Shown: positions 1,737 to 12,424, numbered from the stretch's first letter. The stretch: DNA of 12,662 bases from a virus (IMGVR_UViG_3300000290_000191), one strand, 5' to 3'. The notes: a model not told the origin generated them from the sequence alone. Made by a program: numbers and translations.

Positions 1737-2310
1737 TGCTGACCCCACAAACAGATTTCACGCTCAATCTCACGACGAGTCATGAGACCTTTCCATTGCT
1801 TACCGCCAGCATATGTCCAGCGACGTAGCTGATCACATGCGCCTTTGATATCGCCCTGGTTTATTTTGCGAAGAAGCGTCGATGTTCTGAAATTGCCAGC
1901 ACCCACGTTGTAAACGAATGAGTAAAGAGCGCCGCGCATTGTTTCCGGTATATCGACTTTGATGTACGGGTTAATTTGTCTGGCGACCGTGGCAAGGTCT
2001 TTATTCAGGAGGGCTTTGCATTNNNNNNNNNNNNNNNNNNNNNNNNNNNNNNNNNNNNNNNNNNNNNNNNNNNNNNNNNNNNNNNNNNNNNNNNNNNNNN
2101 NNNNNNNNNNNNNNNNNNNNNNNNNNNNNNNNNNNNNNNNNNNNNNNNNNNNNNNNNNNNNNNNNNNNNNNNNNNNNNNNNNNNNNNNNNNNNNNNNNNN
2201 NNNNNNNNNNNACCATCGTTACCACTTGGGCCAGTGATTAACACTGATGCTATAGCAATTGCTCCGCCACCAATAGCAGCAGCAACGGCTTTTCGTAATG
2301 ATGGAGGCAT
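1733..2310 (-). CDS. R: SAR endolysin (phage-21 R / DLP12 RrrD-type T4-lysozyme-like), interrupted by N-run 2023-2211
   Basis: N-terminus [33 protein letters not shown] is a Gly/Ala-rich signal-anchor-release segment; post-gap in-frame translation ...[55 protein letters not shown]...CLWGQQ matches RrrD-type lysozyme; 1-nt TAATG overlap with holin stop. Confidence 0.9.
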
Positions 2311-2525
2311 TATTCACCTCTCGCAGCCTTGCGCTTATCTTCTTTAATCTTGAAATAAAGGTTTGTCAGGTACGTCAGCAGGCCAAATACCAGGCTACCC
2401 AGCACACCTATTGCTGCCCACTGTGAGGGCGTGACTTTATCGAGCAGCTGTAAAAACCAGTAACCGGCACTACCTGCTGAGGTGCCATAGGCGACACCCG
2501 TTGTTAACTTATCCATGGATTTCAT
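2310..2525 (-). CDS. S: Pinholin (S21 / EssD-type class II holin), 71 aa, with dual-start motif MKSM
   Basis: Translation [71 protein letters not shown] closely resembles phage 21 S; two Met codons separated by Lys-Ser give the holin/antiholin pair; immediately upstream of SAR endolysin. Confidence 0.9.
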
Positions 2526-2654
2526 AACCCCACCTCGCAGACAAAGCGGGTGTAAATTAAGGGGATATTACGTATCGCAATAAAGGCAGAAACGTAACAG
2601 ATTCGGAGTCAGTGAATAACTCAGGTATTGGGTTATCAGCTAATATCGAGACTC

Positions 2655-2687
2655 AAAAAATGGAAAAACCCGCTCGACGGCGGGTTT
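2655..2687 (-). terminator. Candidate intrinsic terminator on minus strand, about 130 bp upstream of the holin start
   Basis: Perfect stem CCCGC(2669-2673)/GCGGG(2680-2684) extendable with flanking A/T pairs, 6-nt loop, followed on the minus strand by a U-rich tract (from + strand A-runs 2655-2668). Confidence 0.4.
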
Positions 2688-3250
2688 AAGCTGTGTGACG
2701 AAGTAACCACTCTTAACAGCATAACCAATTTTTTACGTACGTAAACTACTAAATGATATTTGTGAGAATGCCACCGAGTGTTCAAAACACCACCACAAAT
2801 ACATAAGAAAACTTCAACAAATAATCAGTTAATAATTTCCGATGTTATTTTTAGTTTGTTTAAATTAAGCTAAAGAATTATAGAGCACTTATAAATAAGT
2901 GCCATTAATATAAATTAGCTAATAGATTTATTTTTGTTCAGACAAGAGCCATGAATAGGATTAGATAGAAAAGGTTCAGATAAAAATAGAGATCTACTTC
3001 ACAAATTAAATGAGAAACTAAAACTTACATCTTGAAATAATCACATTGATTAGATGAATATTTATCGCGCAGTGACATCATTTTTTAATAATAGTTCAAA
3101 AAAANNNNNNNNNNNNNNNNNNNNNNNNNNNNNNNNNNNNNNNNNNNNNNNNNNNNNNNNNNNNNNNNNNNNNNNNNNNNNNNNNNNNNNNNNNNNNNNN
3201 NNNNNNNNNNNNNNNNNNNNNNNNNNNNNNNNNNNNNNNNATCAGTACTG

Positions 3251-8441: not shown

Positions 8442-8502
8442 CCTCTGAAATTCAGAGGGATGATGCTACTTAAAATAGCAGAATGCAACTACTTAAAATA
8501 GA
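8442..8502. promoter_or_regulatory. OR-like divergent promoter/operator region between cro-like and cI-like genes
   Basis: Perfect 17-bp palindrome CCTCTGAA-A-TTCAGAGG (8442-8458) overlapping the cro RBS, plus two related near-palindromes GCTACTTAAAATAGC (8465-8479) and ACTACTTAAAATAGA (8488-8502) spaced 23 bp apart. Confidence 0.5.
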
Positions 8503-9244
8503 AATGACTAGCGTATGTGATGCGAGTAACCTTCTACCTATGGTAGAAGAACAGAAGTATCCAGATTTCGCCAAGAGACTAAACGAGCTAATGACAAACA
8601 AGGGAATTTCTGTCACCCAACTCAAAAGTCTTGTGGGCGTTACATATGAAATGGCGCGGCGATACACAATCGGCGCTGCGAAGCCTCGTGCCTCTGTCAT
8701 GAATAAACTTGCATTGGCTCTGGGGGTATCAGCTTCATATTTAGAATATGGTGTTGGCGAGAGAGAAGGATGTAAGGAAATGGCAAGCATCCCCAATCCA
8801 ACAAAACCCGATGTATACAGGATAGAAGTTTTGGATCTTAGCGTTAGCGCAGGACCTGGAACCTATATGCTTTCAGACTATGTTGATGTGCTCTACGCCA
8901 TTGAGTTCACAACAGAGCATGCCCGTTCTCTTTTCGGTAATCGTTCTCAAGATGATATTAAAGTTATGACTGTAAATGGCGACAGCATGTCCCCTACTCT
9001 AGTTTCCGGAGATCGACTGTTTGTCGACATTTCTGTTCGCAACTTCCAAACTGATGGTGTTTACTCTTTCGTTTATGGTAAGACGTTCCACGTTAAACGT
9101 CTACAAATGCAAGGCAACAAACTCGCCGTTCTTTCGGATAATCCAGCCTATGAGAAATGGTACATTGATGAGAAGTCCCAAGATCAACTTTATGTTATGG
9201 GCAAAGCATTGATACACGAATCAATTAAATACAACCGGCTTTAG
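8483..9244 (+). CDS. cI: CI-like prophage repressor: N-terminal HTH and C-terminal S24 (LexA-like) autopeptidase domain
   Basis: HTH-like LNELMTNKGISVTQLKSLVGVTYEMARRY; Ala-Gly candidate cleavage site in SVSAGPG; Ser nucleophile motif GDSMSP and Lys in HVKRL; start uncertain (8483, 8504 or 8540; none has a clear SD, consistent with a leaderless PRM-type transcript). Confidence 0.9.
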   Translation: MQLLKIEMTSVCDASNLLPMVEEQKYPDFAKRLNELMTNKGISVTQLKSLVGVTYEMARRYTIGAAKPRASVMNKLALALGVSASYLEYGVGEREGCKEMASIPNPTKPDVYRIEVLDLSVSAGPGTYMLSDYVDVLYAIEFTTEHARSLFGNRSQDDIKVMTVNGDSMSPTLVSGDRLFVDISVRNFQTDGVYSFVYGKTFHVKRLQMQGNKLAVLSDNPAYEKWYIDEKSQDQLYVMGKALIHESIKYNRL

Positions 9245-9414: not shown

Positions 9415-10491
9415 ATGACAAAATCAATTTGTTTTTTTAATCATAAAGGTGGGGTAAGTAAAACCACAACAACCTTCAATCTTGGATGGGCACTTGCGGA
9501 TGAAGGCAAGAAAGTATTGATGGTTGACCTTGATTCGCAATGTAATCTAACAGGAATGGTTCTTGGCTATGAAAAGATTGATGAGGGTTTAGATTCTTTT
9601 TATTCTAGCAGAGATAACTTAACTCTTGGACCTATTGTAGAATATTTGATTAATGGCGGACAACCTGAAGCATACCTTGAAAAAGAAACGGGAAAATTAC
9701 ACCCTACACTGCATGAAAACCTTCTGCTTCTTCCCGGACATTTAGATGTTTCGGACTTAGATTCACAGATAAGTGTTTCTCTAAAAATTGCTGCTGGTAT
9801 TCCTGCTACAAGAAATATACCAGGGAACCTGCCAAAAATATTACAGCTAATCGCCATGAAGAATAATATTGATTACATTCTTTATGATCTCAGCCCTAAT
9901 GTTGGAGGTTTAAATGAAGTAGTTCTCATGTCAAGTGACTATTTTATCGTACCTGTAGCTCCAGACTTTTTTTGCTGGCAAGCAATTCGCTCTCTCTCAA
10001 AAAATATACCTCGCTGGCACAAAGAATTAGCATTATTTAAAGAAAATAATGATGGTAACTCTTCACAATCAATTAAAAATGCACCGCAGTTTCTAGGTAT
10101 GATTCAGCAGAGATACAGGCCGCGTAAAGGAGCACCTGTAAAATCTTTCGAAAAATGGATGGCAGCTATCCGTGATGCTGTTGATTCGATCTTAGTGCCA
10201 AATCTAGAAAAAATTACCTGCATAATTCCACGAGATAAAGTGCAACATGCAATTAACAAAACAACAGTCAGTGGAGATTTATCAGCCTATGATCTTGCGC
10301 ATATTTCCGATTTCAACTCATTAATCGCAATAAGCCAACAACTAGCGACACCTGTTTTCTCCATCAGTGATCAGCAAATTCGCGATTCAGGGCAATTTGG
10401 GCATGCCTTAAATACAATGAAATCAAGCAGAGACGCCTTTAACGAACAATTTAAAGGGCTGGCTCAACGAGTTCTAGAACTTACAAAGTAA
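9415..10491 (+). CDS. Orphan ParA/MinD-family deviant Walker-A ATPase (358 aa) in the cI-downstream moron slot
   Basis: Deviant Walker A KGGVSKTT at residues 11-18, A-prime motif MVDLDSQCN, Walker B DYILYDLSP, and C-terminal region typical of ParA; no ParB-like gene or obvious centromere repeats adjacent; AT-rich relative to the phage backbone. Confidence 0.85.
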   Translation: MTKSICFFNHKGGVSKTTTTFNLGWALADEGKKVLMVDLDSQCNLTGMVLGYEKIDEGLDSFYSSRDNLTLGPIVEYLINGGQPEAYLEKETGKLHPTLHENLLLLPGHLDVSDLDSQISVSLKIAAGIPATRNIPGNLPKILQLIAMKNNIDYILYDLSPNVGGLNEVVLMSSDYFIVPVAPDFFCWQAIRSLSKNIPRWHKELALFKENNDGNSSQSIKNAPQFLGMIQQRYRPRKGAPVKSFEKWMAAIRDAVDSILVPNLEKITCIIPRDKVQHAINKTTVSGDLSAYDLAHISDFNSLIAISQQLATPVFSISDQQIRDSGQFGHALNTMKSSRDAFNEQFKGLAQRVLELTK

Positions 10492-10498
10492 TGCATGT

Positions 10499-10530
10499 GC
10501 CCGGCCGCATAACCGGGCTTTACTCTTCTT
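10499..10530 (+). terminator. Candidate intrinsic terminator after the ParA-like gene
   Basis: GCCCGG(10499-10504)/CCGGGC(10513-10518) stem with 8-nt loop followed by T-rich tract tttactcttctttc. Confidence 0.45.
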
Positions 10531-10686
10531 TCTCCCTGATTAATCTCATAAAAAACTCCCTCCTCATAATTCACTATGCTCAATACCTACTCCAACTTCG
10601 TGCGATATTTTCAGTTTACAGCATAGTAAATCAGCAAAAACATTTAACTTTCAATTAATTATAGAAAAATCATAGACAACAACAAA

Positions 10687-10736
10687 TATCTACTTTTTGT
10701 TGTTGATTTTTGCTACTTTAAGTAGCAACATAATGT
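10687..10736 (+). promoter_or_regulatory. OL/PL-like operator-promoter candidate
   Basis: Perfect 15-bp palindrome GCTACTT-T-AAGTAGC (10712-10726), one mismatch from the OR site at 8465-8479, plus half-site TCTACTT (10689-10695) and a 10-bp inverted repeat CAACAACAAA/TTTGTTGTTG; -10-like CATAAT at 10729-10734; lies 2.2 kb from OR, bracketing cI and the ParA-like gene. Confidence 0.4.
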
Positions 10737-10817
10737 AAGCTATCACGGACAGGCAGGACGCCCACGAAGTAGCCGCCGGTGGCGTATGAATGACCGGATG
10801 ATTCGTTAGCAACAAAA

Positions 10818-10851
10818 AAGCGCCCTACAGGACGCTTAGCTCTTTAACAAT
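10818..10851 (+). promoter_or_regulatory. boxA-like antitermination element preceded by a short hairpin
   Basis: GCTCTTTAACAAT at 10839-10851 matches the rrn/nut boxA core GCTCTTTAACAA exactly; hairpin AAGCG/CGCTT (10818-10837) immediately upstream; 31 nt before ORF 10882. Confidence 0.4.
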
Positions 10852-10881
10852 CTTAGTATCCCCGTAACAAAAGAGGGTTCT

Positions 10882-11175
10882 ATGGTCATATTCTGTGCTT
10901 ACGTTCATCCTAATGGATTTTTTATCAGCACCAACCAACAAGACGAATTCTGGATTCTACTTAGTAAGCAGGTCGGATGGGGACGATTCTGTCTAATCCG
11001 ACCAGAATCAGAATTTACAGAGAATGGAGGGCTTTTTGAATTACGTGAAATACGTCCGGCAGATGGTCAAGCCCCTGACCAAGTAATCGAATCGTCAGCT
11101 GTTTTATGGCGTCGGCAGGAAGCGTTCGAAGCTGAGAGAGTAATTTCTTCTTATCTTCAGTCGTGGCAGAAGTAG
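10882..11175 (+). CDS. Hypothetical 97-aa protein, first ORF downstream of the PL-like/boxA region (not N-like in sequence)
   Basis: ORF with AGAGGG RBS 4 nt upstream; product lacks an arginine-rich motif; overlaps an antisense ORF (11015-11233), so the coding strand is unresolved. Confidence 0.38.
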   Translation: MVIFCAYVHPNGFFISTNQQDEFWILLSKQVGWGRFCLIRPESEFTENGGLFELREIRPADGQAPDQVIESSAVLWRRQEAFEAERVISSYLQSWQK

Positions 11176-11276
11176 AACTATTGATGATACGTTCAAGTTC
11201 ACAGAGAGTCTCATCATGCAATCTTATTGTCATAATCCCAAGAATAGCTTTAAGACCTCCATCATCACGAATGAAA

Positions 11277-11600
11277 TCAATTNNNNNNNNNNNNNNNNNN
11301 NNNNNNNNNNNNNNNNNNNNNNNNNNNNNNNNNNNNNNNNNNNNNNNNNNNNNNNNNNNNNNNNNNNNNNNNNNNNNNNNNNNNTTCAGGAATATTTATA
11401 TTTATGCCATCCAAGTAATAATCAAGAGCATTCTTAATCAAGCCATGTTCTTCGAGATAAATTAAGTTCGAAATTAGGACATTATCATCTCCAAATGCGT
11501 CACGAACAGACTGCAACGCATCATCAGAAATTTCATAAGGATGAGCATCATACAGTATTTGTAACAACTGCCTTTGTGCACTTCTATCAAATTTGTCCAT
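11277..11600 (-). CDS. Small hypothetical protein with winged-helix-like N-terminal region (DUF2513-like pattern), interrupted by N-run 11283-11384
   Basis: N-terminus MDKFDRSAQRQLLQILYDAHPYEISDDALQSVRDAFGDDNVLISNLIYLEEHGLIKNALDYYL has the L-x-x-L-x-E-x-G-L-I pattern of small wHTH proteins; GGTGA RBS 9 nt upstream of ATG 11600; the 3' end depends on the true gap length and may instead continue in the frame of ORF 11015-11233. Confidence 0.45.
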   Translation of the reverse strand: MDKFDRSAQRQLLQILYDAHPYEISDDALQSVRDAFGDDNVLISNLIYLEEHGLIKNALDYYLDGININIPEXXXXXXXXXXXXXXXXXXXXXXXXXXXXXXXXXXN

Positions 11601-11689
11601 CTTAAATAATCACCATGTTATTGGGGGTATCAAGATTAACCGAATCCTTGTTGTTGGGGAATAACCAGGTCCACCTCGCCTGATGTGGC

Positions 11690-12050
11690 TAAAAGCAGGC
11701 ACATAACAGCTAAGTATTTTCAACCAGAGAGAATCCTTAGCGTTGTGGTGAATGCGGCTCAGCGCACGCGGGTTAAGGTTGAGGCTGACAGTCGACCTTC
11801 TGTGGATACCCACCCGCCTGGTGTGCAACCTTCGCCAGGCACCGGGAGGCACCCGGCACCACAACAGCCACTGCTTTGGCGGTACCAGTTTGTACACTTG
11901 CTTCCGGCTGGCACCGCTCTTTTTACAAAACAGAGAAGAGCATCACCGGACGACGGGCTCATAACCCAATCCATCCGGGCGGCTGCCACCGCAGGTGTTC
12001 TTCTCTGTTTTGTGGAGAAACTAACCGACCTTGCAGGGTCGATATGATGA
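11690..12050. other. GC-rich (about 60 percent) structured noncoding island with boxA-like element and a 15-bp perfect inverted repeat
   Basis: Open in multiple frames on both strands but no translation looks protein-like; boxA-like GCTCTTTTTACAAAA (11916-11930); inverted repeat ACAAAACAGAGAAGA (11925-11939) / TCTTCTCTGTTTTGT (11999-13) flanking a 59-nt GC-rich loop; adjacent hairpins GCCTGG/CCAGGC and CCGGG/CCCGG. Confidence 0.35.
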
Positions 12051-12061
12051 GGAGCAGCAAA

Positions 12062-12424
12062 ATGGCTAGTGAACGCAGTACTGATGTGCAGGCATTTATC
12101 GGGGAGCTGGACGGCGGCGTATTTGAAACCAAAATCGGCGCAGTTCTAAGTGAAGTCGCTTCCGGTGTGATGAACACGAAAACCAAAGGGAAGGTCTCAC
12201 TCAATCTGGAAATCGAACCGTTTGATGAGAACCGTGTGAAAATCAAACACAAACTCTCATATGTTCGCCCAACTAACCGCGGGAAAATTTCCGAAGAAGA
12301 CACCACCGAAACGCCGATGTATGTCAATCGCGGTGGTCGCCTGACTATTCTGCAGGAAGACCAGGGACAATTACTGACTCTTGCCGGTGAACCTGACGGA
12401 AAACTCCGCGCAGCTGGTCGTTAA
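12062..12424 (+). CDS. Hypothetical phage early-region protein (120 aa), possibly YfdP-like
   Basis: Strong RBS GAGGAG 7 nt upstream of ATG 12062; protein-like composition MASERSTDVQAFIGELDGGVFETKIGAVLSEVASGVMNTKTKGKVSLNLEIEPFDENRVKIKH...; family assignment from memory only. Confidence 0.7.
   Translation: MASERSTDVQAFIGELDGGVFETKIGAVLSEVASGVMNTKTKGKVSLNLEIEPFDENRVKIKHKLSYVRPTNRGKISEEDTTETPMYVNRGGRLTILQEDQGQLLTLAGEPDGKLRAAGR

Follow-up and report, generated by a model that had tools for sequence, protein, structure and literature searches.

The stretch analysed here (IMGVR_UViG_3300000290_000191; hereafter the window) is 12,662 nucleotides (nt) of viral DNA and is part of a lambdoid prophage. 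We focused on positions 10,687 to 11,600, where two genes on opposite strands, here called A and B, converge and share 161 nt at their 3' ends behind an early-left promoter (PL) with its operators (OL1 and OL2). Comparison of diverged relatives indicates that both A and B are conserved and under purifying selection. The features of the pair are, by window position:

10882-11175, plus strand: gene B, 97 amino acids (aa), co-directional with the PL operon; Shine-Dalgarno (SD) sequence AGAGGG at 10872-10877
11015-11600, minus strand: gene A, 167 aa; 504 nt natively, 586 window positions owing to the N-run
11015-11175, both strands: 3' overlap of A and B, 161 nt; codon phase A1-B1, A2-B3, A3-B2
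11283-11384, N-run of 102 N; the corresponding stretch of 60 near-identical E. coli genomes is just 20 bases, ccatctttagtaattcttaa
11606-11633, minus strand: promoter-like site for gene A, TTGATA-16-GATTAT; promoter scan, 9 of 12 consensus matches

Genome alignment showed that segment 10500-12100 is carried at 99.9% identity by 60 complete E. coli genomes, with 1601 window bases spanning 1519 genome bases. We confirmed the N-run at the position reported in an initial annotation of this DNA; it is a gap of arbitrary or unknown length, not equal-length masking. Because its 82 surplus N positions shift the frame, the window as given shows two minus-strand open reading frames (ORFs), 11015-11233 (72 aa) and 11277-11600 (107 aa). 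When the 20 bases were restored, both fused into a single 167-aa coding sequence (CDS), gene A, which lies at 11516-12019 of locus L001 (NZ_AP022222.1) and is entered in RefSeq as a "hypothetical protein" (WP_000357060.1). Since a single CDS crosses the gap, the true structure comprises two genes that overlap by 161 nt at their 3' ends. The initial annotation had left the gene structure at this junction undecided; the gene that it took to be small and convergent belongs together with the ORF on the far side of the gap, and the apparent three-ORF puzzle becomes two real genes, the frame break being an artefact of an arbitrary-length scaffold gap. The single minus-strand gene over 11015-11600 that the initial annotation had named as the contrary outcome is thus what we found for the gene structure, but the plus-strand gene stays and the long gene is without known function.

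In L001 a tRNA-Arg gene adjoins the prophage, and the annotated order is cro-like (minus), cI-like XRE repressor (plus), ParA-family (plus), "hypothetical protein" (minus), yfdP, yfdQ, yfdR, yfdT and integrase intD (plus). Gene B has no RefSeq annotation.

Conservation of the antisense pair

With neither a family nor an annotation, the 97-aa ORF was at first regarded as spurious, a view overturned by finding the same protein in diverged gene A loci. Where A is 35-77% identical (Salmonella, Serratia, Proteus and others), an antisense ORF of ~95-110 aa spans the A stop codon and keeps the gene B sequence M.I..A..HPNGFFI....DFW..LS..VGWGRF... The SD of the window copy lies 5 nt ahead of the ATG, and the start codon is conserved among relatives.

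We assessed conservation in an unbiased sample of 71 diverged viral loci. Gene B was found convergent to A in 66 of them, in a fixed relative frame throughout, and the overlap measured 152-218 nt in all loci carrying both genes. Substitutions were analysed in 54 distinct A/B sequences. In gene B's 44 codons outside A, differences at codon positions 1, 2 and 3 were 0.43, 0.32 and 0.61, a third-position excess that is the signature of purifying selection on the gene B protein. Inside the overlap the rates were flattened (0.31/0.34/0.26), as expected for dual coding with the A frame slightly dominant. When gene A's overlapped codons were recoded synonymously, the B frame stayed open in only 0.9% of trials. 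An AlphaFold2 (AF2) model of gene B (predicted local distance difference test, pLDDT, 84.8) showed a five-stranded beta domain (beta-barrel) and a C-terminal helix.

These results bear on the reading implied by the RefSeq annotation, that A is the sole gene here and the 97-aa ORF an antisense frame open by chance. A alone is indeed annotated by RefSeq and by the majority of gene callers, and gene B belongs to no family in Pfam, PHROG, NCBIfam or PADLOC. Such a chance frame is nevertheless highly improbable given protein-level conservation of the 44 non-overlapping codons (position 3 > position 1 > position 2), a frame open in 66/71 loci against the 0.9% expected under recoding, a conserved start codon, a good SD in the window copy and a confident predicted fold. 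By these comparisons gene B is a real gene. The 97-aa ORF and the coordinates of the antisense overlap in the initial annotation were both confirmed, and the 71-locus comparison, the substitution pattern and the recoding test indicate that its two overlapping frames are conserved coding genes.

A single-sequence search of protein databases returned 5 gene B clusters and a profile search 61, all unnamed. Because long antisense overlaps are thrown out by gene callers, a collection of 5.8 billion proteins contains hardly any gene B members. The reverse happened in Paraburkholderia: there B was annotated and A overlooked, although A is present and has 164 nt in common with B. The gene B family extends over hundreds of prophages of Gamma- and Betaproteobacteria. 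Antisense overlapping genes are a debated class, and B adds a concrete example with good support. At one locus from Gilliamella apicola (L228, 4001-4445) gene A is a 103-aa C-terminal remnant; either B persists there without full-length A, or the assembly holds a frameshift.

Gene A begins with a winged helix (residues 6-84) of the kind found in the prophage proteins YjcQ (PF09639) and DUF2513 (PF10711), which supports the N-terminal winged-helix pattern seen earlier in the facing gene. It continues with the motif GIDFxRDDGGL and a C-terminal four-helix domain; this motif and the 80-residue helical domain are foreign to those two families. The window protein had no significant family match in Pfam, NCBIfam or PADLOC and did not reach the Pfam gathering score of YjcQ or DUF2513; it matched phrog_3983, a PHROG of unknown function, at 2.6e-59. 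Among 48 gene A relatives searched against Pfam, 10 matched DUF2513 (E 2.8e-5 or weaker) and 2 matched YjcQ. A word-indexed search returned 30 full-length gene A clusters (35-99% identity) and a profile search 1,142 representatives at 50% identity, nearly all of them full length at 155-175 aa; relatives of gene A are encoded on more than 500 IMG/VR contigs. The earlier statement that the products lack obvious homology therefore holds for annotated families but not for gene A, with its more than 1,100 representatives. All member names in the cluster look-up were "hypothetical protein", a sequence search of solved structures with the gene A profile gave noise only (cupins at E >0.2), and nothing was found in the literature on DUF2513 or WP_000357060.

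The promoter-like site of gene A ends 5 nt ahead of the ATG at 11600, and the mRNA may be leaderless or have a weak SD, GGTGA. We considered the CCCCAACAAC repeats upstream of gene A as an A operator and rejected them, as identical repeats precede unrelated cargo genes.

To judge from these loci, the A/B pair moves as a unit among hundreds of prophages. It could still be read as two independent genes that share DNA, A being a lysogenic-conversion transcription factor, B an ordinary early lytic protein and the overlap a matter of compaction. A is a plausible DNA-binding protein, phage genomes are compact, and the commonest cargo of the same genomic slot (below) is also a convergent pair, with an overlap of only 29 nt. 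The A/B overlap, however, is never below 152 nt even where A is 35-50% identical, its phase is invariant, and the pair, never separated in 66 loci, enters unrelated operons together. Linkage this tight is hard to explain without functional coupling of A and B, and we regard independence as unlikely.

Of 66 evaluable viral loci, 47 had both flanking genes on B's strand. This makes B a member of the surrounding lytic operon and A the one gene there that runs antisense. Sites after PL included this window, a Proteus site beside cI-BstA, a Rac-like immunity region and Salmonella prophages. Other sites lay just after cro, between the Q antiterminator and holin/lysozyme genes, and in a late operon with HNH and terminase genes. 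Where neighbours identify the operon, A/B by gene order is just downstream of a lytic promoter (PL, the early-right promoter PR after cro, or PR' after Q). In late-operon contexts we observed a terminator-like hairpin on B's strand upstream of B in 27/54 loci (1.7 expected from shuffles), which is consistent with a Q-controlled tR'.

The early-left control region and its cassette slot

The region ahead of gene B and the border behind gene A hold the following features:

10688-10704: OL2, a weak copy, ATCTACTTTTTGTTGTT, 23 bp upstream of OL1
10703-10734, plus strand: PL-like promoter, read directly from the sequence
10711-10727: OL1, a perfect 17-bp palindrome, TGCTACTTTAAGTAGCA, motif common to the cro-cI region
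10742-10806, plus strand: hairpin-forming leader RNA of PL; conservation extends to at least three unrelated immunity regions upstream
10810-10837, minus strand: intrinsic terminator, AAGCGTCCTGTAGGGCGCTT then TTTTGTTG; terminator scan, 8 pairs, 5 of them G-C
10839-10850, plus strand: boxA, GCTCTTTAACAA, exact, 12 of 13 bases of the rrn consensus
11617-11672: right border, a repeat TTGTTGGGGA(A/T)A(A/T)CCAG in two copies, of which the window has the first in degenerate form; common to loci with different minus-strand cargoes

The cro-cI intergenic operators (8464-8480 and 8487-8503) have the 17-bp motif in inverted orientation with the 23-bp spacing of OL1/OL2. An operator pattern search gave 6 strand hits at three sites (0.29 expected; 0 of 200 shuffles reached 6). 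In PL, a -35 hexamer TTGATT (10703-10708) is followed by a 17-bp spacer containing OL1 and a -10 hexamer CAACAT (10726-10731); a better -10 hexamer, CATAAT, lies 3 bp further downstream (10729-10734). This geometry matches the PR side (TTGCAT-17-CATCAT, minus strand, 8460-8505). A consensus promoter scan did not call PL. By every sequence criterion the region is PL/OL, with a probable start site at ~10738-10741, and the promoter/operator region that the initial annotation had placed at 10687-10736 is borne out by operators that mirror the cro-cI pair with equal spacing.

We also observed a perfect 10-bp inverted repeat (CAACAACAAA/TTTGTTGTTG; 10677-10705) that overlaps OL2, and CAACAA/TTGTTG-rich repeats at the right border (11617-11672). 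These repeats could have a role in cassette exchange.

RNAalifold analysis of the PL leader gave 15 pairs, 3 of them with compensatory changes: two in the hairpin (CCGGT/ACCGG, CCTGG/CCAGG, CCCGG/CCGGG) and one in the closing stem. The leader may act in cis on the early-left transcript. The terminator at 10810-10837 is kept with all minus-strand cargo types of the slot.

The boxA is the sole exact copy in the window and lies ~100 nt past the inferred PL start and ~30 nt ahead of gene B; the initial annotation had given its exact core as 10839-10851, and the exact match is at 10839-10850. The layout recalls lambda, in which N (35037-35438, minus) abuts the convergent sieB (34482-35036, plus) after PL and nutL. 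In the window B occupies the N slot and A the sieB slot, A is antisense and convergent with the first PL gene as sieB is, and boxA lies in the PL leader as in lambda. B, which comes first after PL and a consensus boxA in the manner of lambda nutL-N-sieB, might accordingly be an N-type antiterminator working with that boxA. We consider this very unlikely. The first PL gene of lambda encodes a small, basic, disordered, arginine-rich protein, whereas B starts MVIFCAYVHPNGFF, has no arginine-rich N-terminus and is predicted to form a folded beta domain, in agreement with the earlier remark that this product does not resemble N. The usual partners of boxA in lambda-like phages, boxB and N, are both missing from the window: in place of a boxB hairpin, the bases that follow boxA (tcttagtatccccgtaacaaaagagggttct) could form, as judged by eye, no more than a 3-bp CCC/GGG stem around a 12-nt loop. 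Nor is there a second boxA on the cro side, where no other copy was found within 2 mismatches. Other cargo types keep boxA without B, and boxA was present in 6/6 PL-context (early-left) A/B loci but in 0/48 late-operon loci.

Phages Kati, SfV and mEp460_4F5 have the leader and the block upstream of yfdP in common with the window, with different genes between. We scanned for the terminator-plus-boxA sequence and found it in more than 120 viral contigs, 110 of them with both borders. These 110 contigs had five cargo lengths, and the main ORF was on the minus strand in every contig. The cargoes, all PHROGs of unknown function, were:

144-aa protein (phrog_5286), minus strand, n = 77; convergent with a 68-aa plus-strand gene (phrog_1744)
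171/173-aa coiled-coil zinc-finger protein (phrog_1244), minus strand, n = 19
164-aa membrane protein, minus strand, n = 9
A/B, with A on the minus strand, n = 5
188-aa ORF, one locus, without the right border

The boxA accompanies all 5 minus-strand cargo types, and plus-strand cargo variants are without terminator and boxA. The right-border repeats also occur at A/B loci in other phage backbones. The initial annotation had proposed an accessory cassette downstream of a PL-like promoter and boxA; we found variable cargo between conserved borders behind a genuine PL/OL. The slot, with its conserved leader, terminator and boxA, variable minus-strand cargo and repeat border, is a defined hotspot for harvesting prophage accessory and defence genes.

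Two observations concern the other cargoes. The 144-aa/68-aa pair (phage Kati, L003, 875-1487; 77 IMG/VR loci) has a 29-nt 3' overlap; as a second convergent pair it suggests that a small lytic-strand gene facing a lysogenic-strand gene is a general slot design. At two loci with the 171/173-aa cargo (L095 and L098), an antisense ORF of ~100 aa lies wholly within the cargo gene and is open in both diverged variants.

Proposed expression logic and relation to known systems

We tentatively favour, at a little short of even confidence, a reading in which A is an exclusion or regulatory factor and B its lytic-phase counterpart, with antisense transcription deciding between them. In a lysogen, CI would shut PL and A would be made from its own promoter. 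Running antisense, the A transcript would pass B's coding sequence, start codon and ribosome site and stop at the 10810-10837 terminator, and B would be kept off. Upon induction, or when PL fires otherwise, polymerases would make B as the first product and run antisense through the whole of A, which would be switched off by polymerase collision and RNA pairing. With mutual silencing by convergent transcription, the geometry would enforce A in lysogeny and B in lysis, and each of the two proteins would mark one state, lysogenic or lytic, to the exclusion of the other.

After the B stop, the PL transcript has ~0.9 kb without a translated frame (antisense A and a non-coding block) before yfdP. 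Antitermination by boxA and Nus factors acts on untranslated RNA of rrn operons and CRISPR arrays (PMC7665894, PMC5725501), and boxA-dependent Nus complexes shield long RNAs of this kind, for example CRISPR arrays, from Rho (PMC7665894). The window boxA is, by its predicted position, likewise near the 5' end of a transcript crossing a long untranslated stretch, and it may recruit Nus factors that protect the PL transcript from Rho over this distance. A role as a safeguard against Rho is sensible and fits the finding that boxA accompanies each of the five minus-strand cargo types. The association of boxA with the cassette suggests that lambdoid phages use Nus factors independently of N.

Both lambda and P22 set N (gene 24) against a lysogen-expressed sieB on the other strand. 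The phage P22, on entry or induction, makes an antisense RNA (sas) that controls sieB, with Esc as escape factor (PMC12197685). By analogy with sieB/esc/sas of these two phages, A would most likely be a lysogen-expressed DNA-binding exclusion or regulatory factor and B the phage's early counter-factor. The P22 system uses an in-frame internal product and a small RNA, whereas the partner in A/B is a protein gene in its own right, convergent and overlapping by 161 nt. Pseudomonas phage Fc02 has, in olg1/gene 10, a lysogen-expressed exclusion gene by the repressor that is overlapped antisense by an early lytic gene, and both products have been shown to exclude phages (PMC9936078). Fc02 is a Mu-like beetrevirus, a different phage type, and its likeness to A/B is one of layout; by analogy it supports the idea that a lysogenic/lytic antisense gene pair is a recurring design. 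Coliphage 186/P2 has a convergent-promoter switch with lysogenic and lytic transcription face-to-face (PMC5001618). Interference is the proposed logic in A/B too, an accessory cassette with ~860 native bp and two coding regions between the promoters. The promoters of coliphage 186, by contrast, are separated by 62 bp and govern the repressor gene.

Several results weigh against the lysogeny/lysis reading of A and B. Coverage of the B start by the A transcript is supported in this window but not family-wide: a terminator-like site on A's strand beyond the B start was found in only 7/54 loci, and we rejected the idea that the A transcript generally ends just beyond that start. Shuffles give as many promoter-like sites in the region as observed, and the 9/12 gene A promoter is a prediction. 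The substitution pattern in the overlap favours the A frame, and the C-terminal helix of gene B may be shaped largely by A. One Gilliamella locus has an intact gene B with a degraded gene A. Finally, A is a soluble winged-helix protein without sequence or fold relation to SieB, and it matched no SieB family in Pfam, PADLOC or NCBIfam.

The same pair could be a toxin-antitoxin or abortive module, in which B is a small toxic effector, A an antitoxin or transcriptional guard and the overlap a type-I-like brake on B; an invader that fires or trans-activates the lytic promoter, or perturbs A, would lead B to kill or arrest the cell. A tightly linked two-gene unit of small proteins moving between prophages would suit such a module, as would the winged helix of A, typical of antitoxins and regulators, the compact B (~100 aa, beta domain and C-terminal helix), and slots elsewhere that hold exclusion genes (sieB in lambda; BstA next door in Proteus). 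Comparison with type II systems revealed no toxin fold or sequence similarity (CcdB/MazF-like) in A/B, and the two genes, convergent in all 66 loci, do not form a co-transcribed bicistronic operon. We hold this module to be improbable.

Lambdoid morons, reportedly described by Juhala et al. in 2000, carry their own promoter and terminator and are variably present between conserved genes. The A/B cassette is likewise variable between conserved flanks and exchanged for other cargo, with promoter and terminator sites predicted by consensus; unlike a moron, it consists of two genes in antisense overlap, one of which belongs to the surrounding lytic transcript. In kind, A/B is a moron/exclusion-type cassette with antisense control; what is new are both families, the obligatory long overlap and the boxA-framed slot.

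It is possible, though we think it doubtful, that A/B represents an undescribed, widespread class of prophage two-gene switch or defence system, locked by a conserved ~160-nt 3' overlap in the most constraining codon phase. If so, lysogenic-state A and lytic-state B would be neither co-expressed nor separable by recombination, and standard annotation would systematically hide half of the system, gene B. Because the pair always lies at the mouth of a lytic operon, and in the sieB slot of lambda/P22, it is a candidate exclusion or regulatory device coupled to lysogeny and lysis.

Neighbouring genes and the non-coding block

Upstream of yfdP, a GC-rich non-coding block of 390 nt (11671-12062) is 93-99% conserved in SfV, SfIV, mEp460 and Kati. 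A search for the small RNA (sRNA) family STnc100/PasD (RF02076) gave a partial match on the plus strand at 11744-11863 (35.6 bits, below the gathering score of 47; positions 31-147 of the 206 in the model). STnc100 and PasD are reported to be related prophage sRNAs (bioRxiv 10.64898/2026.05.13.724894).

The ParA-like gene (358 aa, 9415-10518) has the rexAB position downstream of cI and its own terminator (10499-10518). Its similarity to ParA/MinD models is confined to the P-loop region and falls far below their cut-offs, and in a Proteus relative of the window layout BstA is in its position. It may be a defence gene that the lysogen expresses, and not a gene for a partition ATPase. The initial annotation had suggested that A and B could belong to one accessory module with this gene; among the 71 viral loci, a ParA-like neighbour occurred only at the window-type locus, which argues against that grouping.

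Between the Q-like quuD and the lysis genes of L001, an ompC-like porin gene lies antisense (2116-3198), in a second slot type that is used by A/B relatives elsewhere.

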